DNA of 62,374 nt, filler included, from Stramenopiles sp. TOSAG23-3 (Eukaryota): the NCBI GenBank assembly GCA_900128585.1. It is 3 parts of 3 records of this genome, joined end to end, with 100 filler letters (N's around TTAATTAATTAA, not from the genome) between each part and the next. Parts side by side here need not be neighbours in the genome. Positions count along the whole stretch, not along the records: positions 1 to 30,118 come from LT642231.1; 2 more parts are not named here. One strand, given 5' to 3'. Below, one piece after another: positions 6,454 through 54,042 of the stretch. Numbering within the stretch: the stretch's first letter is position 1; every line of letters begins with the position of its first letter. The position numbers and the translations under genes were made by a program. Below the pieces are notes generated by a model that was given only the letters and a program-made list of their open reading frames with translations, was not told the origin of the DNA and did not search any database.

Positions 6454-7230
6454 CTACTGGTCTGCCACCGTTTGGCGATGAAGCTGGTTCACAACACTCC
6501 CATTGAGGAACAGCAGCTTCCCACACGGCAAAAGCGCTTTCACGATGGACACAATGTCTTCGACGGAGTCATCAAAAATACTGAGGTTTTCAGCAACGCG
6601 TGGGTTGTTGAAATGCTTGCTTAGGACGGCGACAAACATGGATATCCAAGTGGACGCCATGACCAGATTCTCCTGGGGGTCACAGACCAGCGTGTATCCG
6701 CAGCCCAAAATCTGCCTCCAGACTAGAATTTTCGCGGACGCGCACAGCGGACCACGGGGCAACCTCGTAATGCCTTCCTCCGCACCCCCTCTAAAATTAC
6801 TCGAACTGTTCGAGTCTAGCTTCTTCGCACTCGCACCGCTCCCTCCATCCTTGGCCCCGCCAGGACTGCTCGCCCCGTCAGGATTTCGCAAAGACAGGAC
6901 TCGCAAGATGGAGGGCAGCTGGAAAGCGCCACTATTGCTCGTAGACGGCGACGAGATCATCATACCGCCAATATCGCCAATCCCTTCCGTGAAAGAGGAT
7001 ATGCCAGACGTCGACTTGGAGGAAGCCGGGGTCCCCGCCAACGTTTCTAACTCTTTGAAACCGTCGGAGTGTCTGCTTGCCATCCGAAACTGAAACTCTC
7101 TATTAACAACCGCTACAAAGTGTGCCGACCTCTCCTGCATCAGACGGTCGTTGCCTTCCGGGGTAAAGAATTGGGAGTACAAAGGCCTTGCATTCTTATC
7201 GCACGTGTGTATCAAAAAAGCATATACCAT
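6454..7230 (-). CDS. AP5S1: AP-5 adaptor complex subunit sigma-1
   Basis: Starts MVYAFLIHT...LYSQFF, like AP5S1 N-termini (MVHAFLIHT); C-terminal VWRQ..GCGYTLVCDPQENLVMA and LLPCGKLLFLN; ATG at 7230. Confidence 0.88.
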   Translation of the reverse strand: MVYAFLIHTCDKNARPLYSQFFTPEGNDRLMQERSAHFVAVVNREFQFRMASRHSDGFKELETLAGTPASSKSTSGISSFTEGIGDIGGMMISSPSTSNSGAFQLPSILRVLSLRNPDGASSPGGAKDGGSGASAKKLDSNSSSNFRGGAEEGITRLPRGPLCASAKILVWRQILGCGYTLVCDPQENLVMASTWISMFVAVLSKHFNNPRVAENLSIFDDSVEDIVSIVKALLPCGKLLFLNGSVVNQLHRQTVADQ

Positions 7231-8738: not shown

Positions 8739-9848
8739 TTAGTGGCGGACCTTGAACGCATTCAAGACATGGATTTCTGTGGCCACCTCTTCAACTTTGG
8801 ACCTCCACCTATCCTTGCAACTGTCGACGAACTGCTGCAGTCCATGCTCTATTGATCGCGCCCTGGACCGTAGGGGCGTGCTTGAGCGCTCCGTGGCCAA
8901 AAATGGATGCAGCAGGCACTCTTCCGCGGACAACCTTTCGACAGGGTTTACTTTCAGCAACTTGTCAATAAGGTCTTTCGCCTCTGGCGAAATAAATTTC
9001 CACTCTTCGTCGTCAAAGGAGTACTCCCCTTGTTGGGCCCGCTGAATGATCACATCGTCCGACGAGCCTACCTCCGGGTCAAAGGGGTGGTAGGCGCACA
9101 GCATGACGTACAAAATCACGCCGAAACTAAACATATCTGCTTTATAATCGTACTTTCGCCTTCGGGTAACCTCCGGCGCCGTATAGGCCCAGGTCCCACA
9201 GACCGTCCGGGCTTGCCGTTTCTCGTCCAAAATACGCCCAAGTCCGAAATCTGCGATTCGAAGAGAGCTCTCTGGGTCGTTCTTGGTCTTAAGCATAATA
9301 TTTTCAGGCTTCAAGTCGCGATGAATGATGTTTTTCGCGTGCAAAAATTGCAACGCAGAGCAGACGTTCCGCATGTGCTTCCGGGCGGACTCCTCCGAGT
9401 ACGCCCCGTTCTCAATGAGCCGGTCGAACAACTCCCCACCCTCGCACAGTTCCATAACAATGTGCAGCTCGTTGGATACCAAGTAGACGTCATGAATGGC
9501 CGTGATTGCCGGGTGGGCCCCAACCTTTTCCAGTATTTCAATCTCCTTCCTCAGGGTTGCTTTCTGCTTGTTGGATTCCCGGACCTTGATAATCTTTACG
9601 GCGACTTTCTCCGACGTGCTCTGAATGACCGCTGCGCGGACCTTTGCGAAGTGGCCTTTTCCCAAGGTCTTCCCAAGTATGTATTTCTGACTTATATCGC
9701 GCTGCGAGCTGGGAGCTTGGTCGAGCCTCCCGCTAAGACTCTTTGACATTTGCTCTCTAGAGAGCTCGCTCGTCGCACCACCACCGACAAGCTTCGGCCC
9801 TTCCGCACCAGCGGCTTTTTTCTTTTTTCTGGAAAACTTATTCCCCAT
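8739..9848 (-). CDS. CAMK-group Ser/Thr protein kinase with N-myristoylation/polybasic N-terminus
   Basis: LGKGHFAKV, VAVK, MELCEGGELFD, HRDLKPEN, ADFG, CGTWAYTAPE, ISPEAKDLIDKLL; starts MGNKFSRKKKK at ATG 9848. Confidence 0.95.
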   Translation of the reverse strand: MGNKFSRKKKKAAGAEGPKLVGGGATSELSREQMSKSLSGRLDQAPSSQRDISQKYILGKTLGKGHFAKVRAAVIQSTSEKVAVKIIKVRESNKQKATLRKEIEILEKVGAHPAITAIHDVYLVSNELHIVMELCEGGELFDRLIENGAYSEESARKHMRNVCSALQFLHAKNIIHRDLKPENIMLKTKNDPESSLRIADFGLGRILDEKRQARTVCGTWAYTAPEVTRRRKYDYKADMFSFGVILYVMLCAYHPFDPEVGSSDDVIIQRAQQGEYSFDDEEWKFISPEAKDLIDKLLKVNPVERLSAEECLLHPFLATERSSTPLRSRARSIEHGLQQFVDSCKDRWRSKVEEVATEIHVLNAFKVRH

Positions 9849-11782: not shown

Positions 11783-13537
11783 TTAATTGTAACTAAGCCG
11801 GGCATTCTTTCGAACGGCATAGACGACCCTGCCGTCACGATCGTACCCCGTTACCGTCGAGTGCGTCAGCACTTTCATCATAAACGGTAGCTTCAGGATC
11901 GCGAAAGGCAGCGAAAGCAATCCGTACACCGTTCTAATCCAGTACAAAGTTGACCGCAACCTCCACGAAGCGGAGAAGTAGCCGTCGCTGCTGGTGACAA
12001 AGGCCAGCAGCATCAGGGCAAACACACAGAGTGTGATGGTGGTGTCGTACCAGAACCATTTGCTCAGGTGCCCACCTTTTGGAACGTTCAACAGCAAATC
12101 CTTGCTCCTCTGGTCGTACTCTTCCGGGATTGGGTAATCCTCGCCGTCCACCGCGACTGGGTGCCCTTCCCGAATTGCCAACATCCCTTCGTACGACGTT
12201 CGAGGGCGATTCACCTTCGGCAACCTCAAAAACGCGATCCAAGTGAGGCATATTTGTATGCAAAACATGATAGCCCCGAAGACGGTCAGCGTAGGGCCGT
12301 GCGCGCTGCATTCCCTGTCGGGGTCCGTTACGCACAAATAATACAGGGACGCACCCCGACCGGTCCCCAGGACGCCCGACGTCAAGAACTTTGCCGTCTG
12401 AAAGCTCACTATAAAATCAATCAATTGGTACTCATCATCTAAATCCCGCAGCAAGTACAAAAAACACCACCAGATTTCCGAAAAAATTGGAATGAAAGCA
12501 GGGCATGTAAAAAGCCACCATAGCGGATTTCGCGTTCTCGTCCAAATCGACTGGTTGTAGGGGTACAGCGTGTACAACAGATGGGCCTTCAGTCGACCCA
12601 TGTTCAGAAATGAAAAAGTGCTTTCTGACCCCGGCCGCCTGCCCTGGCAGCATCGCCAGCACGGCGCCACACGGTGGCGATGAAATTCACGGCGAGTTTC
12701 CATCATGTCTTCATCGTCGTTCGCCGCTTCCTCTAAAAGTTGGTCCAACGGTTTGCTTCCCGGGAACCCCTGGGGCGACAGCATCAGGCTTCGTACCCCG
12801 TCCTCGGCGGTCAGATCCTTCTGCGCGCTGTCGCCCGTTTGCATTGCCCCGCCGGCCCCCGCAGGGGTACCGTACGTCAGGCGCCGCCGTACGGACGAAG
12901 GCTTTTTTGCACTGCTTTGCCGGTGCACAGCTGGGGACAGGTAAAGTTGTCGAACTTCCGACGTTTGGCGGAACATTTCACGCTTGACATCAGGAATGAC
13001 CGTCGCCAACGTTTCATCGATTGTTTCCAGAACAAAGCTCGGCATATCCTTGTCCTTAATCTCTTCTGCTACGCGCTCGGCAACAGTGTCCATAATATTG
13101 TCCAGCTGTCGGTTGAAGCTCTGGGTGAGAAGGTGGGCAGCATTCTCTCTCGTCTGTAAAATGAGAGATTCCGTAGCATTTGTCGCAGCACTCGCAGATT
13201 TGCGCAAGAGAATCGCGTTCTCCAAAAATATTGTTCCTATTCGACTGTTTAAAACTGTTTGCACAACACCACGACCTAACTGTATTGCCCGCCTTCGCAG
13301 CACCTGGGGAAACCACACCTTCTCGTCCACATGCACATTGTCGCCGCCGCTCGTTTCGTCTTCTTCATCATCCCCATCCCACTTTGAGTTAAGCAATTCG
13401 TGCGTTGCAATAATGAAAAATATGAACACAAAAGTGTTTTCGGCATAGTTTGTACGGTTCAACGCACGTATGCCAACTAACCTCCCCGCATCCTTTACCC
13501 GGCGGGCAAACGTACGGCGGATTCCACGGGCGGACAT
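11783..13537 (-). CDS. Multi-pass membrane protein of unknown function
   Basis: Long GC-rich ORF with first ATG at 13537; several hydrophobic segments in the C-terminal half (LLYTLYPY..WWLF, DEYQLIDFIVSF, YWIRTVYGLLSLPF). Confidence 0.85.
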   Translation of the reverse strand: MSARGIRRTFARRVKDAGRLVGIRALNRTNYAENTFVFIFFIIATHELLNSKWDGDDEEDETSGGDNVHVDEKVWFPQVLRRRAIQLGRGVVQTVLNSRIGTIFLENAILLRKSASAATNATESLILQTRENAAHLLTQSFNRQLDNIMDTVAERVAEEIKDKDMPSFVLETIDETLATVIPDVKREMFRQTSEVRQLYLSPAVHRQSSAKKPSSVRRRLTYGTPAGAGGAMQTGDSAQKDLTAEDGVRSLMLSPQGFPGSKPLDQLLEEAANDDEDMMETRREFHRHRVAPCWRCCQGRRPGSESTFSFLNMGRLKAHLLYTLYPYNQSIWTRTRNPLWWLFTCPAFIPIFSEIWWCFLYLLRDLDDEYQLIDFIVSFQTAKFLTSGVLGTGRGASLYYLCVTDPDRECSAHGPTLTVFGAIMFCIQICLTWIAFLRLPKVNRPRTSYEGMLAIREGHPVAVDGEDYPIPEEYDQRSKDLLLNVPKGGHLSKWFWYDTTITLCVFALMLLAFVTSSDGYFSASWRLRSTLYWIRTVYGLLSLPFAILKLPFMMKVLTHSTVTGYDRDGRVVYAVRKNARLSYN

Positions 13538-14345: not shown

Positions 14346-16511
14346 ATGCAGCCTAGTCTTGGAAGCAGCGTTTTCGAATTAAACCCCTTGTCGAGCTACT
14401 TGGTGCAAGAGTCTATTGCTCAAGGTGCGGCCCCGGAGTACGATGAAAACGAACGCCTCGATAATCGGGCCATTCCACGTTTATCTCCTACGATGTTTTC
14501 ATCGTCTTTTGCTAAGTTTCCTACCAGTGGTGAGGCTTGGGAAAATATCCCAGTCATCATACGAAACTCGTTTTGTCAAGTTTTGAGCGAGTGCAAAAGG
14601 CTACAGTCCGAAGTTAACGTGTTGAAGCGAGAAAATGCTGCTCGAGCTCAAGTCCCGAACGAGCTGAAGGATGTTGAAATGCTGACAGTAAAAGTAGAGG
14701 CCCTGGAGCAAAACGTAAGGTTAAAGCCTTCGATCGCTTTTATAAGCGAATGTTTGGACAGGAAAGCAAACCGAAGCGACGTATACGCCATGATTCCTCC
14801 CCAGGAAATTGACTTGAAGGGGTGGGACTCGCGGTTTCTTCGGATAGAGGAAAAAGTTGAAACGGTGGCGGAATCGTTTGCGCTCAGTGAGAAATTCAGT
14901 GAAAAATGGAACGACATTGAAAACCGACTCGTTTTTACAAAGATGCTTCAGGGGAAAATTGCAGATATGGAAATCAAGGGACGCAAGAATGAGAAGAAAA
15001 TCAAGGACTTTACAGAGATGGTGGAACGAATGGAGAACAGCGAATCCAGGATCCTGGAAAGCGTTGGACACCTGTCGCAAGCGTTGAAAGGTATAAACGG
15101 AAAAATAAATAATTTCGATGGAAAGGCAAAACAATTAGAAGAAAAAGTTTCTGTTTTAGACAGCAAGTTGAAGGGGGTTCTAGCAAGAATCGATAGTGAA
15201 CACGAAGATTTGGAGCACCATATGCAAGAAGTGGAGCGTCACCAAAACGACCTTGACAAAAAGCCCAAAACCGTTGTCCGACGGTCACCTACTGGAATCC
15301 AAACGAAGAAATACAAGGACGCAATTATAAACGAGGTCAGGGGATGCTTAAAATATGACATATACGAGGTCTTAGGGATGGACAGTCACAACCACAATGT
15401 TAGTTTTGATGAACTTCGGGACGATGTTAAGTTGGCAAAGAAACAAATAAAGCGAATAAAAGAACACATGGGTGAACTAGAGGGAAACGGCAAGGCAAAC
15501 AAAACGAATTTAGAGGAGACCCAACAATCAGTTTCATCTGCCAATGCTCAAACCGAGAAGCTCAAAGAAACCGCAGAAGAAATTAAGTCGCACCAGAAAA
15601 GGCTGGAAAAACACTTAAGAACAAATACTTCCCATCTGAAGCAGCAGATTGATGATTTGGAACAAAAAATTAAGGGTGAGCAACACAAGATGTCTGAAAA
15701 TCTCCATAATGTTGTGAATGAAAATACGAAAGAAGTCAAAAAGCAGAGCGGACACATGCAACTAGCAATCGGAAAAATAAAAGGTTTCTTGAAAACCCTG
15801 GTATCGCTCGAAACATTAGAGGACAAGCTTGCGAACGAAGTGGGAAAGAGTATATCGGACATTAAAAAAGACATCAAGAGGAACAAAGACGCTGTAGATG
15901 AAATACCAGAGCTGAAATCAGTAGAACGGCACATAAAAAAGCAATTACTTGCGCGCGTCGAAGACGACATAGGCAAAAACAGCACCGCGGTCAGCATCAT
16001 AACCAAGCTATGCAGTGAGAATACTGCTATGTTGGGAAATCTTGAACAAAATTTCGACAAGGAATTAGAGACCATAAGGCAGTGCAGCCAGCAGGTTAAG
16101 AGCAACTCTAGCGAATTATCCTTGGCGAGGAAAGACCGCGAAAGGTTGACAGTGATTGAAGGCAAGCTGAATGAAGTTCTAACAGCTGCTGCGGCGACAA
16201 CGGAGCAACCGTCGCTTCTCCAAGACACTGCTGCACAGAGAGCCACGGGCAACACCGAAGGCCATGAGAAACAGGATGGGGAAAAAAGCGCTCCAAAACG
16301 CGAATCTCACACGGACCACCCAGAAGCAACAGAATCTCGTCGACACAAGAAACGTCGCCATACGCACCGCAAATCGAAGAAATCTGGTTCTAGCCGGCAT
16401 GGGCGACGGAAACAACGAGTATCACAGGAAGAGCAAAGTCAAACTCATGCGATTCTTGAGGCGTTGAAACAACAAAAGCGACTGTTAGAAGAGAAGTTGG
16501 CATCGACGTAA
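14346..16511 (+). CDS. Long coiled-coil protein of unknown function
   Basis: 721-aa ATG ORF, E/K/L heptad-rich, basic NLS-like RRHKKRR near the C-terminus. Confidence 0.88.
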   Translation: MQPSLGSSVFELNPLSSYLVQESIAQGAAPEYDENERLDNRAIPRLSPTMFSSSFAKFPTSGEAWENIPVIIRNSFCQVLSECKRLQSEVNVLKRENAARAQVPNELKDVEMLTVKVEALEQNVRLKPSIAFISECLDRKANRSDVYAMIPPQEIDLKGWDSRFLRIEEKVETVAESFALSEKFSEKWNDIENRLVFTKMLQGKIADMEIKGRKNEKKIKDFTEMVERMENSESRILESVGHLSQALKGINGKINNFDGKAKQLEEKVSVLDSKLKGVLARIDSEHEDLEHHMQEVERHQNDLDKKPKTVVRRSPTGIQTKKYKDAIINEVRGCLKYDIYEVLGMDSHNHNVSFDELRDDVKLAKKQIKRIKEHMGELEGNGKANKTNLEETQQSVSSANAQTEKLKETAEEIKSHQKRLEKHLRTNTSHLKQQIDDLEQKIKGEQHKMSENLHNVVNENTKEVKKQSGHMQLAIGKIKGFLKTLVSLETLEDKLANEVGKSISDIKKDIKRNKDAVDEIPELKSVERHIKKQLLARVEDDIGKNSTAVSIITKLCSENTAMLGNLEQNFDKELETIRQCSQQVKSNSSELSLARKDRERLTVIEGKLNEVLTAAAATTEQPSLLQDTAAQRATGNTEGHEKQDGEKSAPKRESHTDHPEATESRRHKKRRHTHRKSKKSGSSRHGRRKQRVSQEEQSQTHAILEALKQQKRLLEEKLAST

Positions 16512-16916: not shown

Positions 16917-17933
16917 ATGGCAAAGTTTGTGGACTCCCCGTCTGGGTTGGGCTACACGGTGGTGTCTTTAAACAATCGAGTTGTGACTGTGAGTGACAAT
17001 GATGCAGCAGAGGCTAGTCAGGCAGAGTTTGATAAGCGCATAAGTACGAAGGCAGGAAGCACTTTTGCTACCCTAGATGGGGAATCAATATCGTTCACGA
17101 ATAGAGCAGCAACATTAAAAAAATTAACAAAGAACTGGCAATTTATATGCGACTTTGTCGTGCCTAGCTCCACGTCAAGCCCGGAAGCTTTTGACTTTAA
17201 AGTTGCTGGAAAAATTGCAAATACATTTGCTCACCTGAAATGGTGCAAAAGCAAGTCTGAACATGTGTGCAAATGGATGAGGGCACTCTTAAACGATTGT
17301 GGGGACCTGCAAGTCGCGAAAAGATGCATTCTAGAAGTTGACCAGGCAGTTGCCCCTGTAGTTACAGATCTTGGTCGGGTTGAGGAAAAGCTGGAAATAA
17401 TGGTAGCACGGTACAACCAAGGCCCCGCGCACCCACACGCGAAATCTCCAGCAGCACTGGCAGACATTCTAAGGGGAACTACCAAACACAATCTGGAATC
17501 TATAAGAAAAGAGGCAGATTCCATTAGGAAAGGATTGAAAAAGCGTCCAAATGAGGTAAAACTTGAGCGCGAAAGATATTTGAAGTCCATGTCACACCTT
17601 ACTCAATGGGCCTTGCTTTTTCGTGAAGTTTACCAAGCAAACGCATTTATGCCTTTAACGATCCAGCAATACATTGACGTAATCACAGGTTCTCGTATTG
17701 ACGAGGTGCCTGAAATCCCTAAAGTGCACCCAGGATGGACTTCATTGCCCCCCAAATTGGTGAAAGACATAGAAAAGTTGTGTAACGGGGCGTTACCTGC
17801 AGCGCCAAAAGAAGATGAAAGCATGAAGTTACCGCCCGGGGTGGACAGCGAAAAATGGGACCTGATGGACGACGAGGAAAAAGATGCTTTGCTCCCGGGC
17901 TGGAGGGAGCAATTTGCAAAGCTCAAGGTCTGA
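16917..17933 (+). CDS. Hypothetical protein
   Basis: 338-aa ATG ORF with coding-like composition; no motif recognised. Confidence 0.8.
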   Translation: MAKFVDSPSGLGYTVVSLNNRVVTVSDNDAAEASQAEFDKRISTKAGSTFATLDGESISFTNRAATLKKLTKNWQFICDFVVPSSTSSPEAFDFKVAGKIANTFAHLKWCKSKSEHVCKWMRALLNDCGDLQVAKRCILEVDQAVAPVVTDLGRVEEKLEIMVARYNQGPAHPHAKSPAALADILRGTTKHNLESIRKEADSIRKGLKKRPNEVKLERERYLKSMSHLTQWALLFREVYQANAFMPLTIQQYIDVITGSRIDEVPEIPKVHPGWTSLPPKLVKDIEKLCNGALPAAPKEDESMKLPPGVDSEKWDLMDDEEKDALLPGWREQFAKLKV

Positions 17934-18729: not shown

Positions 18730-19613
18730 TTTCTCACGCCTGGGGCATTGTAACCGTATAATTTAATTTAAAGCCAGAATTCTGTGGAGGCTATCGATAC
18801 ACGCGCAAACGCATTTGTGCTGATTATAATCGAGAATAGACATTTTGAATATGCGATAATCAATTTGAGATTGCAGCAATAATTCTTATCAATTTTTCCA
18901 ACAACTGTTGTTGCAGTTGTGCTGTTTTATTATTTATTATATAAGTTGAGCGCGGCCAGGTACGTACCAGGTACCAGCAGGTACCTTATTTATTTTATGA
19001 GGAGTCCAGTAGTCCAGTCCAGGCTCCAGGCTCCAGGCGCACAGAAGAAGAAAAGCTTGTGGAGAGATATTATACGACTCCTAGACTTCGTACGTATAAT
19101 ACCATTGACTAGTTTGACATAGCTATAGCATTGTGAAAAAATACTGTTATGAGGAGCTGTTGTTATTCGATTTCTTTGGTTTTCTCTTTTCGTTCCTCGT
19201 AGGCCGTCTGGTTTCATAATAAGGATCAGGAGGCGAATAGCCTTCCTTTCACCTGTACTCAAGTGGAAGTCTGCGTGCAGTGCTATTATCATTTTAATCT
19301 ATAATAAACTATAAATACGAGGAATAGATACTAAAACAAGAAAGTGAAAGAAGAGGAACAACAACAAACATAACAACAACAACAAAACAATAATAAAAAA
19401 ATCATCAGTAAGTAAAATTAAACATCAACAAGGAAGGAAAGGACAACTTCGTACTACATACCCACCCATAGCGCGTTTACCTCATCAATCAAAAGGTTCG
19501 TTTCACTTTCTCTTTGAAACGTCTTGAAATACAAAGCAATAGAGCAGACATTAGCTGCTATAGGCGACCGCTGCTATATTTTTATGGTCTGACGCTCGCT
19601 ACAATTTCAAACA

Positions 19614-22600
19614 ATGCCAAAAATTTTTGTTTCGTCGGATGCTCCAACATTTCAACAAGACGTCTCGGGGTACGATGTGGAGGCAGGGGCTAAAACTGGC
19701 GAGCTTGTAGACAGTAAAGTTTACGATGTGCGCGACACTTTCTCTTCTTATGATAACGTAGGCAAGAACAAAATCAGCAACACAGTTGACCCCAGAGGCC
19801 GGTTGTGGTACTTTCAGGCATTTTGCGTATGGATCATTCTAGTGCCATGTACCATCACGCCAATGTGGTTGTCGCCTCTGGCGTCTGTGTTTTCTCTTCG
19901 AAGCAGTGTATTATTGTTTATCCTGATCTATTGCGAATCCTTGTGGTGCGGCAAGATTGCAATTATGACGTGGGATCTCTGCAAAAACTTTTCTTCTTCG
20001 TTGTTAAAAACCCATTTAATATGTACGGTCTCAACGATAATGTCTTTGTATAGTTTGGCATTGAATGAAAAGCCAAGCATATGGGGGTTCTGCACGTTCG
20101 CGAGGACGATTGTCCTCGGCAAACCTTTTCGCCACGTGCAACAATGTTTCAAAAAACAATTCACAGCGTCATTGCTGCGGCCACTTAATGGTGTAGTAAT
20201 CATACTATACCTGAACCATTTGCTATGCTGTCTCTTCCTGTATGTCGTAGAGACGCAAGACAAGAACGATCGAAGTACCTGGAACATTTACTCCATGTCT
20301 GAACTGAAAGGCACAAACTTCACTGCTCGGCCGTCCTGGGACGAAAAGTACTTGAAGGCGTTGTATTTCACAACACAGACTATTTTTACGGTAGGTTATG
20401 GAGACTGTTCCCCCGTTACCATCGCCGAAAAACAGATAGCAAGCGTGTATACCGTCATTGGTTCAATAATCTTTGGGTTCATTATAGCATGTATCTCTTC
20501 TACAGTAAAACATTACAACATATCTTCATCCCAGGCAAGATATCGGCGGGATGTGCTCAGAAAATACATGAAGCGAAGAAACATGCCTCTCAAGATTTCC
20601 GATTATGCTTTGGCATCATTTGATGTTTATGGCTACGAACTGGGAGGAAAATTTCCTTCCAAAATTCTACATGAGATGCCACGATGTCTGCAGATTGAAC
20701 TGGCACGGTTAGACTCTGATATGCTCCGAAAATTATCCTTATTTCGTGAGGCAGAGGAGGTAGTGGTTCGCCACCTAGCAGAACAAATGACGTCGCATCT
20801 TTATCTACCGTCGGAGACTCTTGCTACGTCCACCAGTTTACAGCAACGACCAAAGATTGAGATAATTCGAAAGGGAAAAGCTTGTATTTTTTCCACTGAT
20901 GGCATTATGAACGGCAACGAAAACAAATGTATTAAACAAAAACTGTACGCCGGGGATGCGTTTGGAGAATTCGAGACATTACAAAAATTAGTGATGGAAG
21001 GAATCGTTGACGTTCCGCACAAGATTGGGTTCCGAAGCACAGAATCGTATACATATCGTAGCAAAACCGTACTAGACACCGCGAGGCTAACAATTTCCAG
21101 CATCATAAAAGTTATCACGTTTCATGACAAAGTTCAAAGTAAGAAAAAGTCAAACCGACGAAAAAGTTTAGTGGTCGATGAAGTTAGCATATCAGCCTTG
21201 CATGACAAGGGGTGTGGCGGAACCGGAAAGCCTATTATATCGATTTCAGAAGATCGGCGCAGTAGTGGATTCCTGGTACCCATGAACGAAAGTACAAATC
21301 GGTCAGCAACAGAACGGGATTCCAAGAAAAGGCCGTTTCTTCTCCCAGTATGCGACATTGCCCTGTTCTTATACGCAGCGTCGCTGTGGAGCACAGCAAC
21401 AACCCCTCTGCGAATTAGCGCTATGTACGGATGCGACATGGATTTTTTTGCCGAGCGCGCTTATTATTTTGGTGCTATGGACGTATTTTGTGACTTGGTG
21501 TTTTTGGCAGATGCAATTTTGCACGTAAAAGAAACGATAAGCGTAAAATCAAGAGCAGGGGTAAACAGCAAGAGCTTGATGCTCAAGATAATTCTCTTTT
21601 TCCCGTTTCACTGGTTTTTCTTTTCTACAAACCAGCATTTGAGTTGGTTTGGCATTACTCGTTTGGTCTCTGTTCATCACATATTTACGGGATTATCAAA
21701 GTTAAAACTTGCGCTGGAAGACAGAGGAATGCACGTAGGGAGTGATGTGTTTCTGCATGTCCGGTGCCTCTTGGTAACTGCCTTTTTTGTGCATCTAACC
21801 AGCTGCGCTTTTATGACAGGTTTTGTGACCAGTGAGTGCACCTCATATCTCGTTGGTGTTTACTGGACTCTGACGACCATGACGTCCACCGGATTTGGGG
21901 ATATAGTTCCAAAGACGAAACCTGGAATGTTGCTGACAATTATGGCCATCTATGTAGGAACGTTTCTCTACGCATTTGTAGTAGCAAGCATAACTGCGCT
22001 GTTTCATGAATCAGGGGTGCACGACGGCGACCCAAGGTATCGCAGAGACATTTGTCGACAGTACATGATCGATCTAAAAATCAACACAGCAACGGAACGC
22101 CGTGCACTATCTTACATAAAATTTTATGCAGGCAAGTTTGGAAATATTGTCGAACAATCGCTGCTGAACCATGAATTACCAGCGAAGCTCTCAAAAAAAC
22201 TGACAAATGCTATCAAAAGCAAGTTTCTTCAGTTGGGATTTTCCCACTTGGAGTCCGAAATACAACAGAAAATAATGGAGCGCATGGCACAGCAATTTTA
22301 TTTCCCCGGCGATACGATGCGTTCCCCATTTCCTGGTGCATACTTTGTGAATCAAGGCTCCGTCGAGATAAAAGATTTTTCGAAGAACCTGACTGCCAAA
22401 CTGGCCGGCGGCACAAGTTTTGGTGTCAGCGATATATTTCAAGTCCAAGAGAGTGATATCAGCGTAAGTTTTCTAGAACCGACAGAAGTTTATTATCTCA
22501 GTAAACATGATTTCTATTCTTCTATTGAAGATGACCCTGAAGTAGACAAAATATTACATACGGGAAAAGATCAGGCAACGGCGGTGCAATCGAACACGTT

Positions 22601-22868
22601 TCAAGCCACTAAGCGAGTGGCAAGTGGAAACGAAGGCACAAAAACTTCAGACAATAGTCGATTGTTAGGAACAGTCAATTATTTGCAAACAAGCGTCGCC
22701 TGGGATGCAGTTCTAGTGTGTGTTTTCATATGGAATTTTATTACACTACCATTTCGGGCTTCATTCATGAACTTTTATGACATGCCCGCCATCATATACA
22801 TGGTTGATTACTTTGGTGACCTGGCCTTTCTTTTTGACCTTTTTGTCAGCTCCAGAAGTCTGGGGTGA
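19614..22868 (+). CDS. Four-repeat cyclic-nucleotide-binding K+ channel (CNGK-like), N-terminal part: repeats I-II and start of III
   Basis: Pore signatures TVGYGD (20388-20405) and STGFGD (21885-21902), each followed by S6, C-linker and a CNBD-like region; the ORF ends inside the S1-S2 region of a third repeat. Confidence 0.9.
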   Translation: MPKIFVSSDAPTFQQDVSGYDVEAGAKTGELVDSKVYDVRDTFSSYDNVGKNKISNTVDPRGRLWYFQAFCVWIILVPCTITPMWLSPLASVFSLRSSVLLFILIYCESLWCGKIAIMTWDLCKNFSSSLLKTHLICTVSTIMSLYSLALNEKPSIWGFCTFARTIVLGKPFRHVQQCFKKQFTASLLRPLNGVVIILYLNHLLCCLFLYVVETQDKNDRSTWNIYSMSELKGTNFTARPSWDEKYLKALYFTTQTIFTVGYGDCSPVTIAEKQIASVYTVIGSIIFGFIIACISSTVKHYNISSSQARYRRDVLRKYMKRRNMPLKISDYALASFDVYGYELGGKFPSKILHEMPRCLQIELARLDSDMLRKLSLFREAEEVVVRHLAEQMTSHLYLPSETLATSTSLQQRPKIEIIRKGKACIFSTDGIMNGNENKCIKQKLYAGDAFGEFETLQKLVMEGIVDVPHKIGFRSTESYTYRSKTVLDTARLTISSIIKVITFHDKVQSKKKSNRRKSLVVDEVSISALHDKGCGGTGKPIISISEDRRSSGFLVPMNESTNRSATERDSKKRPFLLPVCDIALFLYAASLWSTATTPLRISAMYGCDMDFFAERAYYFGAMDVFCDLVFLADAILHVKETISVKSRAGVNSKSLMLKIILFFPFHWFFFSTNQHLSWFGITRLVSVHHIFTGLSKLKLALEDRGMHVGSDVFLHVRCLLVTAFFVHLTSCAFMTGFVTSECTSYLVGVYWTLTTMTSTGFGDIVPKTKPGMLLTIMAIYVGTFLYAFVVASITALFHESGVHDGDPRYRRDICRQYMIDLKINTATERRALSYIKFYAGKFGNIVEQSLLNHELPAKLSKKLTNAIKSKFLQLGFSHLESEIQQKIMERMAQQFYFPGDTMRSPFPGAYFVNQGSVEIKDFSKNLTAKLAGGTSFGVSDIFQVQESDISVSFLEPTEVYYLSKHDFYSSIEDDPEVDKILHTGKDQATAVQSNTFQATKRVASGNEGTKTSDNSRLLGTVNYLQTSVAWDAVLVCVFIWNFITLPFRASFMNFYDMPAIIYMVDYFGDLAFLFDLFVSSRSLG

Positions 22869-25564
22869 AATGGAATCAAATTGCACAGGTTGGTACTTCA
22901 GTAAAAGTTAACATTGTTGCAAGCATCCCATTTGAGGTATTTGCCGCCAACCTTGCGTACGTTACGTATGGATTTGTTCCAGCGTTTGCACTCTGCCGTT
23001 TAAATAAACTTTTGCGATGCCACGTTCTAATCCACCACGCATCCCGAGTTGGGAAACTGTTAGTCCGTTGGAACTGCAAGATTAGTGACAACATGGCGAC
23101 CGTCTTAAAGCTTATAATCGTAATGATCGGCTCCGCGCATATTATTTCATGTGTATGGTTTTTCTTGGCAACATCTACAACTAACGAAACCAATTGGGCA
23201 GAACAAGACGATGGCGAGCTCTTTGCAAATTGTACCGCTCCAAGCAACAAAATCCCGTTACAACTTCAGAATGGGTTGCGCTGGTACCTGAGGTCGTTGT
23301 ACTTCACGATAGCTACTCTGACTACGGTTGGCTTTGGCGACATTACCCCCTCGAATGGTATCGAGCGGGCTTTTACCATTTGCCTGTTTATTATTGGGAC
23401 ATTTATATTCACGTTTATTATCGGTTCACTGGAAAAGATTATTGCCCAGATTGACGTAACATCGACGATTTACAACAGGAAAGTCGAAATGTTGAAAACT
23501 TACTTTAAAACTCGTCCAAAATTATCGAATAAGATACAAACTTTGTGCCTCTCTTACCTGGACCATTTGTGGAACGTTAGAAAAGGCGCAAAATCCGAGG
23601 AAGTTTTCAACATCCTTCCTGGTAATTTAAAAACGGACATAAATTACGTTCAAGTAAAAACGATGCTCTCTCGTTTGTCGGTCGTGAAAATTTTGTCCAT
23701 TGATGTCCATAAGAACATAGCGTCTAAAATGAAGCAGGATATACTTTTACCGGACCAAATTTTATACGAATCGGGCGAAATTGCTGACACCTTGTATTTT
23801 TTGACCAACGGGGAAATTCAGCTTCTGTCCAAGAGCCGTGACATGACATATACGACTGTTACGGCCCCTTCCATTATTGAAGAGGGAGATTTTCTTTTAG
23901 AACTTCGTAGATCCTGTACCGCGAAATCAACTCAGATCAGTGTCCTTCTGTATTTAACGCACGATCAGTTTGAGGAAGCTATTTTTGCTGACAATAAAAC
24001 CAGGCCAGAGGGACATTCGCTAAGGGACGCAGTAGCGCAGCACAAACACGACATAAAAGGGAAAAGTTTAGTGCGGAAATTGCTGCTGAACATGAAAAGC
24101 TCAAAAATGTTAAAAATGCAGGCGGTTGAAAAGAGCGCAAGAGTGTTGAATAACGAAAATGTATGGAGCTTAGATTCCAACCGTAGAAAAGTTTGGGAAA
24201 GCATACTGCTATGCACAATACTCTGCGAGGCAATCGTAACACCTGCGAGGATAGCTCTTGGGCAAGAAAGCGAGTACAATCTGGTGCTCTTTGTTCTTTT
24301 TGGATTTATACTGGATGTGGTGTACACTGCTGACGTGTACTTCAGGGCTACAAAGATGACAATCCTTCTCTCGGATGGAACCGTGCTGAAAAGAAAACAG
24401 GAAATCAAGAAACATTACATGTCCTCTACCGAGTGCAAAACCAACATTTTGACCGCCGTTCCCGTCGATATGATGGTTTTCATTTCATTCCCACTGGCAA
24501 GCCCGGTAGCGCTGGCAGTTTGCCGACTCCCGCGAATAATTCGGTTGAAAGATGTCCCCCGTGCGTTTGACCAGTCGGTTGCCCTAGCAGAGAGTGTCGG
24601 TTGCGTTGTGAGCAATAGTTCCGTCCGTTTTATTAAAATGCTATGCATGATTTTATTGGCATCACATTTTTCTGCATGCATTTTTTTAATTCTATCTTGG
24701 GCGGGCGGATGGGAAGGCGGCATTAAACCATGGACGTTTACAAACAGCGTAGAGGGCCACAAGGTGCTAGAGACTTCGGACGGTGCCCAGTACTCAATAT
24801 CCCTGTACTGGTCTTTGTACACAGTGACATCCATCGGTTACGGAGACATTTCCCCGAAAACCAGTGTTGAAACGTGTTGGGCAATAATTATGATGATGGC
24901 AGCGGCGTTTTTCTGTGACGCAGGGATTACTGCGATTTTATCTCATGGGGTAGACACCACGGATTCGAAAGCAGCGTTGTGCAACGAACGAATTTCTACG
25001 GCGATGAAATTTGTCGCACTTCGTGGTGCGTCAAAAAAGTTTTTGGGGAGAACGAAAAAATGCTACACGGAATTCTACATCAATAACTTTGGAATAGACG
25101 AAAAGGTAGTGTTCAATTCTCTCTCGTTTGCATCAAGCAATGCAATATTACGGGATGCCATTCTCCCATCTATTCGTCGGCACAAACGGCTACAAGCAAT
25201 GCTAAAGGACGACTACGGCCTCGTGATTTCTCTTGTAAATAGCATGACTCCAAAAACATATTACTCAAAAGAACGCCTGCGCGCTCCGTACGAAGAGTGG
25301 CCTGGACTGCTTTACATCCTGAACGGTTCAGTCGTTTGTGTACAACTGAGTGGTTGCACGTATCGAATACCATGTGGGACACTGTTGGGGGAAGCTTGCT
25401 TTCATGGAAAACGAAATACACAGCACAATGGAAACGAAATTATTGCAACATCCTTCTGCGAAACATACACGCTCTCTTCTGAAAGGTACAGCACGCTTCT
25501 GAATGAAGCATCGAGGACGGCTACCAATGAATCCAACTTAAACATGTCTGAAACCTGTGACTAA
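22865..25564 (+). CDS. Four-repeat cyclic-nucleotide-binding K+ channel (CNGK-like), C-terminal part: rest of repeat III and repeat IV
   Basis: Begins at S3 (IVASIPFE) and S4 (RLNKLLR); pores TVGFGD (23324-23341) and SIGYGD (24830-24847); no ATG at the start; overlaps the upstream stop in the -1 frame. Confidence 0.9.
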   Translation: MKWNQIAQVGTSVKVNIVASIPFEVFAANLAYVTYGFVPAFALCRLNKLLRCHVLIHHASRVGKLLVRWNCKISDNMATVLKLIIVMIGSAHIISCVWFFLATSTTNETNWAEQDDGELFANCTAPSNKIPLQLQNGLRWYLRSLYFTIATLTTVGFGDITPSNGIERAFTICLFIIGTFIFTFIIGSLEKIIAQIDVTSTIYNRKVEMLKTYFKTRPKLSNKIQTLCLSYLDHLWNVRKGAKSEEVFNILPGNLKTDINYVQVKTMLSRLSVVKILSIDVHKNIASKMKQDILLPDQILYESGEIADTLYFLTNGEIQLLSKSRDMTYTTVTAPSIIEEGDFLLELRRSCTAKSTQISVLLYLTHDQFEEAIFADNKTRPEGHSLRDAVAQHKHDIKGKSLVRKLLLNMKSSKMLKMQAVEKSARVLNNENVWSLDSNRRKVWESILLCTILCEAIVTPARIALGQESEYNLVLFVLFGFILDVVYTADVYFRATKMTILLSDGTVLKRKQEIKKHYMSSTECKTNILTAVPVDMMVFISFPLASPVALAVCRLPRIIRLKDVPRAFDQSVALAESVGCVVSNSSVRFIKMLCMILLASHFSACIFLILSWAGGWEGGIKPWTFTNSVEGHKVLETSDGAQYSISLYWSLYTVTSIGYGDISPKTSVETCWAIIMMMAAAFFCDAGITAILSHGVDTTDSKAALCNERISTAMKFVALRGASKKFLGRTKKCYTEFYINNFGIDEKVVFNSLSFASSNAILRDAILPSIRRHKRLQAMLKDDYGLVISLVNSMTPKTYYSKERLRAPYEEWPGLLYILNGSVVCVQLSGCTYRIPCGTLLGEACFHGKRNTQHNGNEIIATSFCETYTLSSERYSTLLNEASRTATNESNLNMSETCD

Positions 25565-25781
25565 GAAATGTTTCTCATTCGTCTTTAAAATAAAATTATT
25601 TTTTTACTGCTGGACATAAAATTTTTAAATACTTACAATTAAACAGCCCTTATTTTTTTAAATAAAACGACTGTTTTTGGTACGTACAACAAATACATTT
25701 TTAAAATAAAAATTTAGATTTAAATCTGTTCTTCAGGGGATGTAACACGCGCCTTTAAAAGCCAATGCAAAACATTTTAAT

Positions 25782-26780
25782 TTATACAAAGAACGCAATC
25801 GAGGACATGGCCAAAAATCCTATGGTATAAAACAGCAGTTTGTAATTGTGCAGCCGTTTTGCACTAATCTCACTACGATTCGTTTGAAGCAGTTCTTTTG
25901 CCCCAATCTCCAAAGCCGAGATGTATAAAAACACTCCCGCAACGACAGCTTTTATTAGGTCTGCTATATAATTGTTCCAAGCGGGCGTATCCGCTACCGA
26001 CGGTGGTACAAACATGCCAATGATCATCCCTAACGGTGCACTAATCGCAAACCCAGCCGAAATCTTCAGCATAGTTCTCCATTCTTTGGACATGTTCGCA
26101 GCCGCCCCGCCGAGAGATATCCCTGCAAAGACTTTGTGGGCCATGACGGCAATAACCAACTCTACGTACTCAATGTTGCTTCTTGCTACGGTGATGGAAA
26201 AGCCAAGGAGCAAACTGTGAAATATTAAAGCAAAAAACAGCGAAAGGAACGACCGATTCGACCCGTGCAAATGCTCTGTAATGTGTTTCATATCATGGTG
26301 GTGACCCCCGGGCGAACACGGTACCATCGATCCATACAGCGACTGCGACAAGCCATCCTCCAGCTTGCCCCGCGGGGGGGAAGCCGTTTTCGATATTTCG
26401 AGGTATTCGCCACCCGAAGGTTGAAGTTGAGAGTGACTGTGCCCGTGCGTGCTATTGTCACTGTGACCATATCCCCTAACATTGCGGTGAACGTGTTTCC
26501 TGCCGTGCCCCGACTCCTCCAGCACGAGCAACAGGAGAAACGTTGCGCCGCACGCAAAGTTTGCCCATGGCACTTTCCCCGCGTTTAATGCCGATCCTTG
26601 GGTGTCGGCAAGCTGGTGAACAATTGCCGCCGAAAGCAACACTCCGGCGGAAAACATGTTTCCCAACGAAAACAGGACCCTGTTCCGTTTCTTTAACAAC
26701 GTAGGCAAAAGTACAGAAAAAAAACCTCCAGCAAAAACCACAATGACAAGGATGATTTCTGCGGCTCCCACCGTGGCCAT
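25782..26780 (-). CDS. ZIP (SLC39) family zinc/iron transporter
   Basis: GNMFSAGVLLSAAIVH, His-rich cytosolic loop, ALIFHSLLLG, AVMAHKVFAG, AGVFLYIS; about 8 TM segments. Confidence 0.95.
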   Translation of the reverse strand: MATVGAAEIILVIVVFAGGFFSVLLPTLLKKRNRVLFSLGNMFSAGVLLSAAIVHQLADTQGSALNAGKVPWANFACGATFLLLLVLEESGHGRKHVHRNVRGYGHSDNSTHGHSHSQLQPSGGEYLEISKTASPPRGKLEDGLSQSLYGSMVPCSPGGHHHDMKHITEHLHGSNRSFLSLFFALIFHSLLLGFSITVARSNIEYVELVIAVMAHKVFAGISLGGAAANMSKEWRTMLKISAGFAISAPLGMIIGMFVPPSVADTPAWNNYIADLIKAVVAGVFLYISALEIGAKELLQTNRSEISAKRLHNYKLLFYTIGFLAMSSIAFFV

Positions 26781-27689: not shown

Positions 27690-28439
27690 ATGGGACAAAT
27701 ACATCCCACTGGTCCCAACGTCATTCGTTTCCCGCAAGTCGGCGGCGGCCATAACTGTGATTGTACCAAACCACGTTACGATTTTTTCTACGACCCACGC
27801 CTCGCACAGTTCGGAATAACGGAGCATGATCTTACTACTAAAATGAATGAGGCCAACAGAGTTTTAGATGATCTCAGTCCATCCATGTTTCGAGTTGGTA
27901 TCTTCATTTTTTTTTTTGTGTTTGTAGTGCCAAATGTCCTGCGACAAATAATTCGTCAGGATGGTTGTAGCGATGGCGAGTGTCCTGAAACGATCGAAAT
28001 AATTTCCATCGTGATACAAATGCTCCCAGTCTTCTTCATATGTGGGCTAATCAGCTATTTCATGAAAATTCGTGGCCAAATCTCAAAAGCTATTGACGAC
28101 ACCTTTCAGGACTGGGGAGCAAGGGGTATTACGGTCAGGAGAGTCCCAAAAACGAAACATGCCCAAGGTGCTCTTTACTTGGTTCTTCCGATGCAGCAGC
28201 CGGCACAACCACCTATGGGAGGAGTGCAAATGGTGCCCATGGGAGGGGCAATGGGGATGCATCAGGGAGCAGACGTTCAGCCGATAGCAATGGCCCGACC
28301 GATGCAATTGGTGACGGTCGTGGTCCCGCCCGGAGCAAGTGCTGGGCAAATGCTTCAGATGACCGTCAACGGGAGAATGGTGCAAGTTCAAATACCTCAC
28401 GGACTACAGGAAGGCAATCAATTTCAAATGCAAGTGTAA
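27690..28439 (+). CDS. Two-TM membrane protein with M/Q/P-rich linker and small C-terminal beta domain
   Basis: 249-aa ATG ORF; two hydrophobic helices; C-terminal VTVVVPPGASAGQMLQMTVNGRMVQVQIPHGLQEGNQFQMQV internal two-fold repeat. Confidence 0.8.
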   Translation: MGQIHPTGPNVIRFPQVGGGHNCDCTKPRYDFFYDPRLAQFGITEHDLTTKMNEANRVLDDLSPSMFRVGIFIFFFVFVVPNVLRQIIRQDGCSDGECPETIEIISIVIQMLPVFFICGLISYFMKIRGQISKAIDDTFQDWGARGITVRRVPKTKHAQGALYLVLPMQQPAQPPMGGVQMVPMGGAMGMHQGADVQPIAMARPMQLVTVVVPPGASAGQMLQMTVNGRMVQVQIPHGLQEGNQFQMQV

Positions 28440-31856: not shown

Positions 31857-33065
31857 ATGCCAGAGAGAATTACTTGCATCCTTTCTGCTCTCCCCAGAAA
31901 TGCATTGTTCCAGACAGTAAACGAGTTGTATAACTTTCTATCTCTGAAAGAAGTTAAACGAGCACTGCTGGAAACCCAAAATGCCGCGATTTTCTCCAGC
32001 TTGCAGCTGTTTAATCTAGTGAACTCCAGATATATAGATTTACTCGGAGCTGCAGATACTGTTGGAGGCATGATCTATATGCACCAAGGAAGCATGCATA
32101 TTGCTAACCGTTTACAAACAAGAGTGAGGACAAAAGTAGTTGACTTCGGTTTGTCTGCTACACGTAGAAAAACACGTAGGTATGTCCTCCGAGCCAAGAA
32201 AATTAAAGATTTGGAAGTTAAAGCTAGCATAATTTTACAAACTGCCTACAGGAATTTGAAGAGAGTTAAATGCTTAAAAATTCTAAAGGAAAAGAGTGCT
32301 GCAGCAGCGTTGATTGTAAAACGTTCTCATACAGCTAGTAATTCTATAATACAGTGCTGGCGCAGACATAAAGCTTGGAATCGCGTTTTAAAGACTTTAC
32401 ACAGTAAATCCCTTGGCCAAGAGATTGAAAGTATGTTGCACAGATGGTCAAGTGATAAAGTATGGGAATTAGATGACAGTGCATGGCCTTTGTATAATGG
32501 TGTGCTTGAAAGGGACATCGAGGGTGTAATTTTGCGATTACCACGCTGCGCTAGTGCTTTATTATTCGTCGCCTTGCATATTATAAATAATGCCCTTTCA
32601 TCGCAAATATGTCTTGAACACTATTTTTACAGAATTCTTAAGAGGACAAAAGGTACTTTAGCGCGTTACCAGCTCTTTTTTGACATGAAATTTGCAAACA
32701 TGCCAGAACAAGTGATTAATAGGGTAATAGAACTCTTAGACCCAATAGATCACAGTCTTATGGGGGATTTAGTAATTTGTACAGTGAAAGAAGAACAGCT
32801 GAAAGCAAGGTTTCTTTTGAAAGGTAATATTCCTATTTTGTGCCGAAAAAAACTGCGATTAAATGGAGCAATTTCAGAAATAACTAATTCTGATAATAGC
32901 AGCCTGGGAATTCTACGGCGAAGCAGACAGTGTAATAGATTTTCTGTTGTAACTTTGCAGCTAGTGCCACGAAGAAAAACGTTAATCAAACCAACAAGTC
33001 GTAAATACGCAAAAAGTGAACACCCCCTCAGCCCAGTGGACCATTCTGTTGTTTGGTGGTGGTAA
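31857..33065 (+). CDS. Divergent, shortened COG1-like protein (Vps51/Vps67-type N-terminus) with IQ-like motifs
   Basis: LVNSRYIDLLGAADTV resembles COG1 LVGERYRDLIEAADTI; QLFFDMKF..LDPID resembles the COG1 C-terminal QLLFDLRF..IDPFD; IQ-like ILQTAYR and IIQCWRRH between them; first ATG at 31857. Confidence 0.65.
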   Translation: MPERITCILSALPRNALFQTVNELYNFLSLKEVKRALLETQNAAIFSSLQLFNLVNSRYIDLLGAADTVGGMIYMHQGSMHIANRLQTRVRTKVVDFGLSATRRKTRRYVLRAKKIKDLEVKASIILQTAYRNLKRVKCLKILKEKSAAAALIVKRSHTASNSIIQCWRRHKAWNRVLKTLHSKSLGQEIESMLHRWSSDKVWELDDSAWPLYNGVLERDIEGVILRLPRCASALLFVALHIINNALSSQICLEHYFYRILKRTKGTLARYQLFFDMKFANMPEQVINRVIELLDPIDHSLMGDLVICTVKEEQLKARFLLKGNIPILCRKKLRLNGAISEITNSDNSSLGILRRSRQCNRFSVVTLQLVPRRKTLIKPTSRKYAKSEHPLSPVDHSVVWWW

Positions 33066-53226: not shown

Positions 53227-54042
53227 GTGATTGCGTTAAGTCTCACCTTCATGTACACGTATAACAAAGAAAATTCCCCGCCGACTGTTATGTGGGCACT
53301 GTGCTTAATAGCAGCAATTTATGGAAATATTGTTCTATGGGATATTTCATGGATCGAGTCTGATGCAGAATATTCCAGATTAATCCATAATGCTTGCGAG
53401 GACATCGAGAAAGAAAACTCCAAAATGACACTGGAAATGGAAAGGCTACAAAGCAATTGCATAGACCAAAAAATACTTACAACTGTTGCTGCCCAACAAA
53501 CCACAGATATGGCAAAACAAGTAGGACTTGTCGATAGCAATGGGAAGTTATTGAATGAAAACATGAAAAAATTCGAGGGGCTTATGGATTCGCCGTCCTT
53601 TACGGGTTACCACATTCGTGTTAAAAGAGTGAGTACAATCCAGGAAGAGAGTAATTATACGGATACTCGTGATAATTACTACAACGACATGATTCGGGCA
53701 TTTAAATCTGCAACATGTGGTGGGGATAAATCTACTTTATCCTTGGATAATAACAGAATACGAAAACGTCTAAAAGCAGCTTTTAAAGATTACAACAATA
53801 AATGCGAAAATTGTTATTCAGAACGAATCGATGTTGACAAGCTTTCGAGTATGGATAGTGATGGTGATTCAAATGTAGCTTTGTGGGAATTTGCAGTTGG
53901 GATATACAAAAATGTATTGCAGCGCAAAATCGGGGCTGAAGGACAACAAATTAAAGACTTGGAGAGCAGTTGTACCCTGATGAGGGAGAGAATTCGTGCA
54001 ATTGAAAAGCACTTGTCCCATTTTGCTAGCAAAGGTATGTAA
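53227..54042 (+). CDS. Membrane protein with coiled coils and an EF-hand; true 5' end uncertain
   Basis: Hydrophobic N-terminal segments; EF-hand loop DSDGDSNVALWE; frame is open from 53197, first ATG at 53251. Confidence 0.7.
   Translation: MIALSLTFMYTYNKENSPPTVMWALCLIAAIYGNIVLWDISWIESDAEYSRLIHNACEDIEKENSKMTLEMERLQSNCIDQKILTTVAAQQTTDMAKQVGLVDSNGKLLNENMKKFEGLMDSPSFTGYHIRVKRVSTIQEESNYTDTRDNYYNDMIRAFKSATCGGDKSTLSLDNNRIRKRLKAAFKDYNNKCENCYSERIDVDKLSSMDSDGDSNVALWEFAVGIYKNVLQRKIGAEGQQIKDLESSCTLMRERIRAIEKHLSHFASKGM

Follow-up and report, generated by a model that had tools for sequence, protein, structure and literature searches.

A single-chain, four-repeat CNBD-type channel gene in a marine stramenopile and its probable origin apart from animal CNGK

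The stretch of DNA analysed here (the window, 62,374 nucleotides joined from three parts of assembly GCA_900128585.1 of Stramenopiles sp. TOSAG23-3) encodes, at positions 19614-25564 on the plus strand, four complete units, each consisting of six transmembrane segments (6TM), a K+ pore, a C-linker and a CNBD (cyclic-nucleotide-binding domain). A single chain with a K+ signature and a CNBD-type domain in every repeat resembles the architecture of the CNGK (tetraKCNG) channels, as the first-pass annotation of this DNA had recognised. In the window the units are spread over two open reading frames (ORFs), one opening with an ATG and extending over 19614-22868 (+; 1084 amino acids, aa), the other running from stop to stop at 22838-25564 (+; 908 aa); the two share 31 nucleotides (nt), in different frames. 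Read with six T instead of five at the T run 22840-22844, they form one frame of 1983 codons, for which the annotation, joining them, had estimated about 1980. A public protein, P0003, is one unbroken chain of 1983 aa and is 99% identical over 100% of the query (one of 2 matches among 3285 candidates in a word-index search of long proteins). The units were delimited with our own repeat hidden Markov model (HMM) of 487 positions, of which repeats 1 to 4 (R1-R4) cover 2-479, 4-484, 7-486 and 15-471. The features of the gene, with aa positions counted along the joined chain, are as follows.

19614..25564 (+): whole gene, ATG 19614, TAA 25562-25564; a single 1983-codon frame once the T run 22840-22844 is six T
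19779..21212 (+): repeat 1, aa 56-533; S1-S6, filter TVGYGD, weakly charged S4, C-linker, divergent CNBD 20721-21146
20388-20405 (+): selectivity filter of repeat 1, TVGYGD, aa 259
21153..21170 (+): basic motif NRRKSL, aa 514-519, just past the CNBD of repeat 1
21303..22628 (+): repeat 2, aa 564-1005; filter STGFGD, CNBD 22239-22556
21885-21902 (+): selectivity filter of repeat 2, STGFGD, aa 758
22644..24082 (+): repeat 3, aa 1011-1490; spans the frame break; filter TVGFGD, best-conserved CNBD 23663-23986
22840..22844 (+): T5 homopolymer that breaks the frame; T6 in natural populations (contigs of independent runs; P0003)
22994-23047 (+): S4 of repeat 3, CRLNKLLRCHVLIHHASR
23324-23341 (+): selectivity filter of repeat 3, TVGFGD, aa 1238
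24149..25561 (+): repeat 4, aa 1513-1983; filter SIGYGD, divergent CNBD 25211-25516
24521-24562 (+): S4 of repeat 4, CRLPRIIRLKDVPR
24830-24847 (+): selectivity filter of repeat 4, SIGYGD, aa 1740

Scanned separately, all four units pass the Pfam models of the channel domain, Ion_trans with 30.8, 30.1, 35.1 and 61.2 bits in R1-R4 (cut-off 25) and Ion_trans_2 with 48.7, 42.0, 47.4 and 32.1 bits (cut-off 22.5). The four filters read exactly as first annotated. The G(Y/F)GD K+ signature is found in 4/4 repeats, likewise in P0004, a relative of 2087 aa that is collinear with P0003 (34% identity over 1939 columns), and the filter glycines are invariant in 16/16 members of the family, here called family A, in which the protein is placed below. 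The S4 segment carries weak charge in repeats 1 and 2, whereas in repeats 3 and 4 every third position is basic, for a total of three to four such residues. Pairwise identity among the four repeats is flat and low (17.6-20.2%), which suggests that the repeats are old and specialised.

We further note that AlphaFold2 models of the two halves of the protein, computed from the family alignment, agree with four tandem units. The models of R1 with R2 (1009 aa; mean predicted local distance difference test, pLDDT, 70.1; predicted template-modelling score, pTM, 0.56) and of R3 from S3 onward with R4 (908 aa; mean pLDDT 79.0, pTM 0.59) contain in each unit the transmembrane helices and a pore helix, followed by the helices of the C-linker and by a beta-roll that has helices on its flanks. 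Their top PDB matches in Foldseek are whole subunits of SthK, LliK, CNGA1/CNGA3, TAX-4, HCN1/4 and AKT1, with target-normalised TM-scores up to 0.71 and 0.75 over ~415-490 columns, and by sequence the best solved relative of repeat 3 is SthK (105 bits). With 6TM and pore-loop units on the one hand and C-linker and CNBD on the other, the protein is a member of the CNBD-channel superfamily (HCN/CNG/KCNH/SthK type). The single-repeat channels of this group (SthK, LliK, CNGA, HCN, KCNH, AKT1) are the best sequence and fold matches of each unit, but they form homo- or heterotetramers of separate subunits, whereas the window protein consists of four fused and diverged ones.

The Pfam scan proposed as a check in the first-pass annotation bore out the channel domains in all four units and the CNBDs in one: cNMP_binding passes its cut-off of 27.5 bits only in repeat 3 (37.6), with repeat 2 below it (23.1) and no match in repeats 1 and 4 when the units are scanned separately. 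An HMM of the CNBD alone (the CNBD-only HMM), trained on 376 repeat units from other families and hence not on this protein, matches after every pore, with 26.0, 48.4, 55.0 and 24.0 bits in R1-R4. Of the four repeats, just repeat 3 retains both canonical pocket residues of its phosphate-binding cassette (23873-23917), the Glu at aa 1423/1424 and the Arg at aa 1433, and in an ungapped phmmer alignment with SthK its Glu falls on Glu and its Arg on the Arg of PRTA. The stretch IEEGDFLL-x-LRR of this repeat is kept in P0003, P0004 and P0005, the last being the closest match described below. Repeat 1 has FGE, yet its phosphate-binding cassette is interrupted by an insertion, and the motif is absent from P0004/P0005; repeat 2 has FGV, and so is without the pocket Glu, and is also without the pocket Arg; repeat 4 has LGE but no identifiable Arg. 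The NRRKSL motif that follows the CNBD of repeat 1 (RRS in P0004 and P0005) resembles an RRxS kinase consensus site, a hint of possible control by a cyclic-nucleotide-dependent kinase.

With the first 1084 residues as query, exhaustive phmmer searching of 1.84 billion representatives yielded 5420 matches at E<=1e-3, 47 of them at E<=1e-30. The best match is P0005 (1936 aa, 33% identity, 655 bits), and the runner-up has just 213 bits. Units were counted in 152 proteins, namely the 150 matches listed together with P0003 and P0004.

Four units, all complete: 53/152 proteins
Four units, three complete: 13/152 proteins
Four units, two complete: 1/152 proteins
Five units, four complete: 6/152 proteins
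Three units: 26/152 proteins
Two units, both complete: 43/152 proteins
Two units, one complete: 3/152 proteins
One unit: 7/152 proteins

By these counts four-repeat CNBD channels are common in public data. In a per-repeat FastTree of 537 units, the four repeats of P0003 fall into four clades that consist almost entirely of one repeat position each (R1 with R1, and so on), with support of 0.971 for R1 (24 units), 0.991 for R2 (33), 1.0 for R3 (39) and 0.996 for R4 (34). The same four positional clades receive values of 97-99 in the Shimodaira-Hasegawa-like approximate likelihood-ratio test (SH-aLRT) of IQ-TREE. Sixteen full-length cluster representatives are present in all four clades, and 42 proteins, fragments included, in at least one; a profile search with family A returned 6 proteins. 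These trees place the window protein in a distinct, previously unnamed four-repeat CNBD-type channel family, our family A, and by the same sequence comparison each repeat position is orthologous across its members, with position-specific conservation. A pairing of R1 with R3 and of R2 with R4 within the family is suggested by YFT/YW motifs before the filters and is not claimed here; R2 and R4 are sisters in FastTree (0.93), a grouping that IQ-TREE with more families did not recover.

Taken as a whole, the account of one four-unit gene, belonging to a separate family A and encoding a pseudo-tetrameric K+ pore with specialised repeats, is in our judgement probably correct. On this account the single chain would, in the manner of CNGK, fold up to form a pseudo-tetrameric pore selective for K+. 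Repeat 3, with its canonical Glu/Arg pocket, would be the likely sensor of cyclic AMP (cAMP) or cyclic GMP (cGMP), and the part of the degenerate CNBDs of repeats 1, 2 and 4 would probably be structural, in a gating ring. On opening, K+ would leave the cell and hyperpolarise it, providing a fast electrical output of cyclic-nucleotide signalling, and the hyperpolarisation may couple to motility or feeding behaviour. Control of flagellar beating, which the first-pass annotation put forward as a possibility, is likewise conjectural.

The main alternative accepts the same four-repeat K+ channel and holds that cyclic nucleotides do not open it, the CNBDs being structural or binding something else and gating depending on voltage, pH or another signal, as in KCNH and zebrafish CNGK. 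We treat this as a substantial possibility, though on balance we doubt it. Three of the four CNBDs are without the pocket Arg, the S4 segments of repeats 3 and 4 carry the regularly spaced basic residues described above, DrCNGK is gated by pH although its CNBDs are canonical (PMC4749565), and the CNBDs of KCNH do not regulate opening (PMC7576140). Against these stand the Glu and Arg at canonical spacing in repeat 3 of P0003, P0004 and P0005, and the rank of repeat 3 as the top-scoring CNBD both with the CNBD-only HMM and with Pfam, where it passes.

Several observations weigh against the account that we prefer, and the first of them also speaks for gating by another signal. The pocket Arg of repeat 3 is present in just 8 of the 39 family A units (Tyr in 15, His in 5, Gln in 5), so that canonical nucleotide binding is not family-wide, and repeat 3 of P0003 itself has another residue (IEE) in place of the FGE glycine. 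The example of DrCNGK, pH-gated with canonical CNBDs, means that the ligand is not predictable from sequence (PMC4749565). We infer K+ selectivity, pseudo-tetramer assembly and ligand gating from sequence and half-protein models, and this basis is itself to be counted on the negative side. The deep order among the family A repeats shifts between analyses; the trees (LG+G4, short searches) were built from very divergent repeats, and the tree set held no sea-urchin or Salpingoeca CNGK under its own name. Finally, population variants in the gene, some of them from low-depth contigs, comprise 7 synonymous versus 11 non-synonymous changes, a ratio in which strong purifying selection is not apparent on that scale and which is uninformative as a test of constraint.

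In natural populations the locus is a single gene with a 1983-codon ORF. This conclusion rests on two findings: an extra T behind 22839 is present in 3/3 independent runs with cover there (two DNA metagenomes and one metatranscriptome), and P0003 is unbroken, its sequence at the junction (...DLAFLFDLF-CQLQKSGVKWN...) requiring six T at 22840-22844, where the window has five. The comparison used contigs of four public runs from other studies over 19000-26000, the fourth run being without cover at the T run. Contigs from RNA libraries reach parts of the gene, the two RNA runs covering just 12 and 10 of 30 bins, with gaps to which no meaning attaches, and one such contig (263 nt, 22612-22873) crosses the junction with the frame restored. 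The two ORFs thus belong together as a single chain, as had been proposed; the first-pass annotation would have given way to transcripts of two independent proteins or to fewer than four complete 6TM units, and what we found is an RNA contig that spans the junction in frame and four units that pass Pfam. An intron of 44 nt (GT...AG, 22845-22888) would also restore the frame and was rejected, because the 15 residues that it would delete align with the S2-S3 region of P0004/P0005, because no spliced joints were seen in any of the four runs over the interval compared, and because P0003 reads through.

The T5 of the window is thereby a deficit of one base, either an assembly miscount or a private variant or frameshift of the sequenced cell. 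Homopolymer miscounts are a frequent assembly error. Were the frameshift real in the sequenced organism, the locus there would be a fresh pseudogene or would encode two half-channels (R1, R2 and part of R3; part of R3 and R4), a reading for which the window's own T5 speaks, along with the 4 runs marked as possible sources, which contain every sampled word of the window. We consider it unlikely, since the three covered runs, one of them an RNA library, agree on T6, since the break falls inside S2-S3 of repeat 3, so that a complete third unit would be missing from both halves, and since the remainder is intact, with no other stop and, the frame break set aside, 7 residue differences from P0003 in 1983.

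Among the families in the trees, one is of animal type. One of its members, P0016, shares 82% identity with a protein from the sponge Oopsacas minuta, it includes proteins of the coral Pocillopora, and it is the best match for the short motifs of the third repeat of Actinia CNGK in the supplement of PMC7576140. All four animal-type repeats fall in one exclusive clade (0.92 in FastTree; SH-aLRT 99 and 100), in agreement with the separate clade of CNGK repeats reported in PMC7576140. The approximately unbiased (AU) test rejects the union of the third repeats of family A and the animal-type family (family B) (p-AU 0.012, log-likelihood difference 56.8) and that of their first repeats (p-AU 0.0048, difference 56.5), and does not reject a single clade of all family A repeats (p 0.56). 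Because of the exclusive animal clade in the per-repeat trees and these AU rejections, we favour as the best reading two separate quadruplications, with family A apart from animal CNGK/tetraKCNG; of the two origins left open by the first-pass annotation, ancient orthologue or independent quadruplication, it is the second that the sequence comparison retains.

A true orthologue of animal and choanoflagellate CNGK, that is, an ancient inherited four-repeat gene whose trees are misled by divergence, could be argued from the same overall architecture with a K+ filter in every repeat, from the best-kept CNBD lying in repeat 3 as in ApCNGK, and from the saturation of the repeats evident in their low mutual identity. 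The animal-type clade is exclusive in all three analyses, however, both positional unions are rejected, and the window protein is just 23-26% identical to the animal-type members, so that we regard orthology as very improbable.

Hardly worth entertaining is the notion that both frames are joined at the T5 run by programmed -1 frameshifting of the ribosome or by slippage in transcription, for although a -1 slip on the CUU-UUU codons would yield exactly the DLF-CQLQK of P0003, natural-population DNA has the sixth T and there is no evident need for recoding.

CNGK is known from S. rosetta, from fish and from invertebrates of the sea (PMC4749565, Fechner 2015), four-repeat forms being confined to metazoans and choanoflagellates in the account of PMC7576140 (Pozdnyakov 2020), and among K+ channels it is described as representing the 4x6TM type, its domains being nearly identical (PMC6259924). 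The window protein and CNGK share a single chain of ~2000-2400 aa with four [6TM + GYG/GFG pore + C-linker + CNBD] repeats, the non-swapped CNBD-channel fold, and a most canonical nucleotide pocket in repeat 3 (PMC4749565); the gating of ApCNGK takes one cGMP, at its third CNBD (PMC4749565). Further traits of CNGK are the activation of ApCNGK through that domain at nanomolar cGMP and a place in the sperm flagellum with a hyperpolarising response; in the window protein the sequence correlate of the former is the pocket Glu and Arg of repeat 3. Four repeats per polypeptide and GYG or GFG in each are thus found as in CNGK/tetraKCNG, but common descent with the CNGK repeats is not. The window repeats are not positionally orthologous to those of CNGK, they are far more diverged from one another (17.6-20.2% versus 20.8-28.7% in the sponge protein), three of the CNBDs are degenerate, and the gene belongs to a microbial eukaryote of the sea with an intron-poor genome instead of to an animal.

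Two-repeat tandem CNBD channels are described from dinoflagellates and oomycetes (PMC7576140). These channels of the stramenopile, alveolate and rhizarian (SAR) lineages likewise consist of concatenated 6TM-CNBD units in protists, with repeats that specialise and co-evolve and with some CNBDs partly reduced (PMC7576140), but the window protein has four units where they have two. Outside family A, the two-unit proteins of our set (a Pythium insidiosum protein among them) make up R1 and R2 clades of their own. At least two further families of protist proteins have four complete units in each chain when counted with the same HMM. Family C, a group with R1-R4 clades of its own, includes Saprolegnia parasitica SPRG_00987 and proteins of Thraustotheca and Aphanomyces (euteiches); family D includes several Phytophthora, Achlya and Lagenidium proteins, and in it R1 pairs with R3 and R2 with R4 (SH-aLRT 99 each). 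Both are clades separate from family A, which is without a resolved R1-R3/R2-R4 pairing, and none of the named oomycete proteins lies within family A in the per-repeat trees.

Annotated oomycete genomes encode four-unit CNBD channels (P0171, P0166, P0172, P0176-P0179) of two families, where the 2020 survey in PMC7576140 gave only two-repeat oomycete forms. The parts of PMC12223298, on the membrane proteome of Phytophthora zoospores, that were consulted do not treat CNBD tandem channels. Among the chytrids, P0167, P0169 and P0170 (Boothiomyces, Terramyces) have no more than one channel unit, full or partial, and after it seven successive matches to the CNBD part alone of our repeat HMM, an unusual array.

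The fusion of four subunits into one chain is the route by which Nav and Cav channels gained asymmetric pores. Among K+ channels, CNGK is the only example given in the literature cited here, which reports it solely from animals and one choanoflagellate (PMC4749565, PMC6259924, PMC7576140). The architecture itself is therefore known, but repeated independent concatenation of CNBD K+ channels, including in an abundant marine protist, is not described in the literature searched, and no description of four-repeat CNBD channels outside Holozoa was found in its full texts (paywalled work not covered). The present observations point to an independently built four-repeat CNBD channel in a marine microbe of global distribution, and they show that several families of such channels exist in public data, with the proteins already present and unannotated. 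Subunit concatenation and repeat specialisation thereby become testable on replicated natural experiments, and a candidate electrical effector of cyclic-nucleotide signalling is nominated in uncultured ocean protists.

A broader conjecture would have pseudo-tetrameric CNBD-type K+ channels invented several times, once in animals together with choanoflagellates, once in family A and again in two or more families with oomycete proteins, with the family A channel of the protist studied here converging on the sperm CNGK design down to a third repeat that is the sole sensor, of single molecules, of cAMP or cGMP. We hold this conjecture to be doubtful as a whole. If true, a free-living flagellate would turn chemical signals into hyperpolarisation by the same ultrasensitive route by which sperm are guided.

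At least half of the sampled words of the stretch are present in 15 of the 24 listed runs. The runs in which it is found come from 13 studies (2015-2025) and are almost all marine or seawater metagenomes, and the locus 19000-26000 is found in marine metagenomes at >=99% identity; on this evidence the organism seems widespread and genetically uniform. The window also encodes a BART-domain protein and a Tcp10_C (CENPJ-type) protein, which by their sequence fit an organism with centrioles or cilia and say nothing on the channel. The neighbouring genes are all long uninterrupted ORFs, so that the genome looks intron-poor, and GC content is ~45-50% in genes versus 30-35% between them. Rfam and tRNA scans of the window gave no matches. 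Other genes in the window include the following.

2627-5380 (-): LeuRS, matching the Pfam model of the leucyl-tRNA synthetase editing domain
6454-7230 (-): AP-5 sigma subunit
39045-43379 (-): 1444-aa protein with a LysM match
46410-47960 (+): Mei2-like RRM_2 protein

Six further long ORFs, of 249-721 aa, are without a Pfam family at E<=0.001 and are possibly lineage-specific genes.

11783-13537 (-): ORF without a Pfam family
14346-16511 (+): ORF without a Pfam family
16917-17933 (+): ORF without a Pfam family
27690-28439 (+): ORF without a Pfam family
31857-33065 (+): ORF without a Pfam family
53251-54042 (+): ORF without a Pfam family

We also note a 279-aa ORF at 8907-9746 (+), which lies antisense within a protein-kinase gene at 8739-9848 (-) and is probably a chance open frame.

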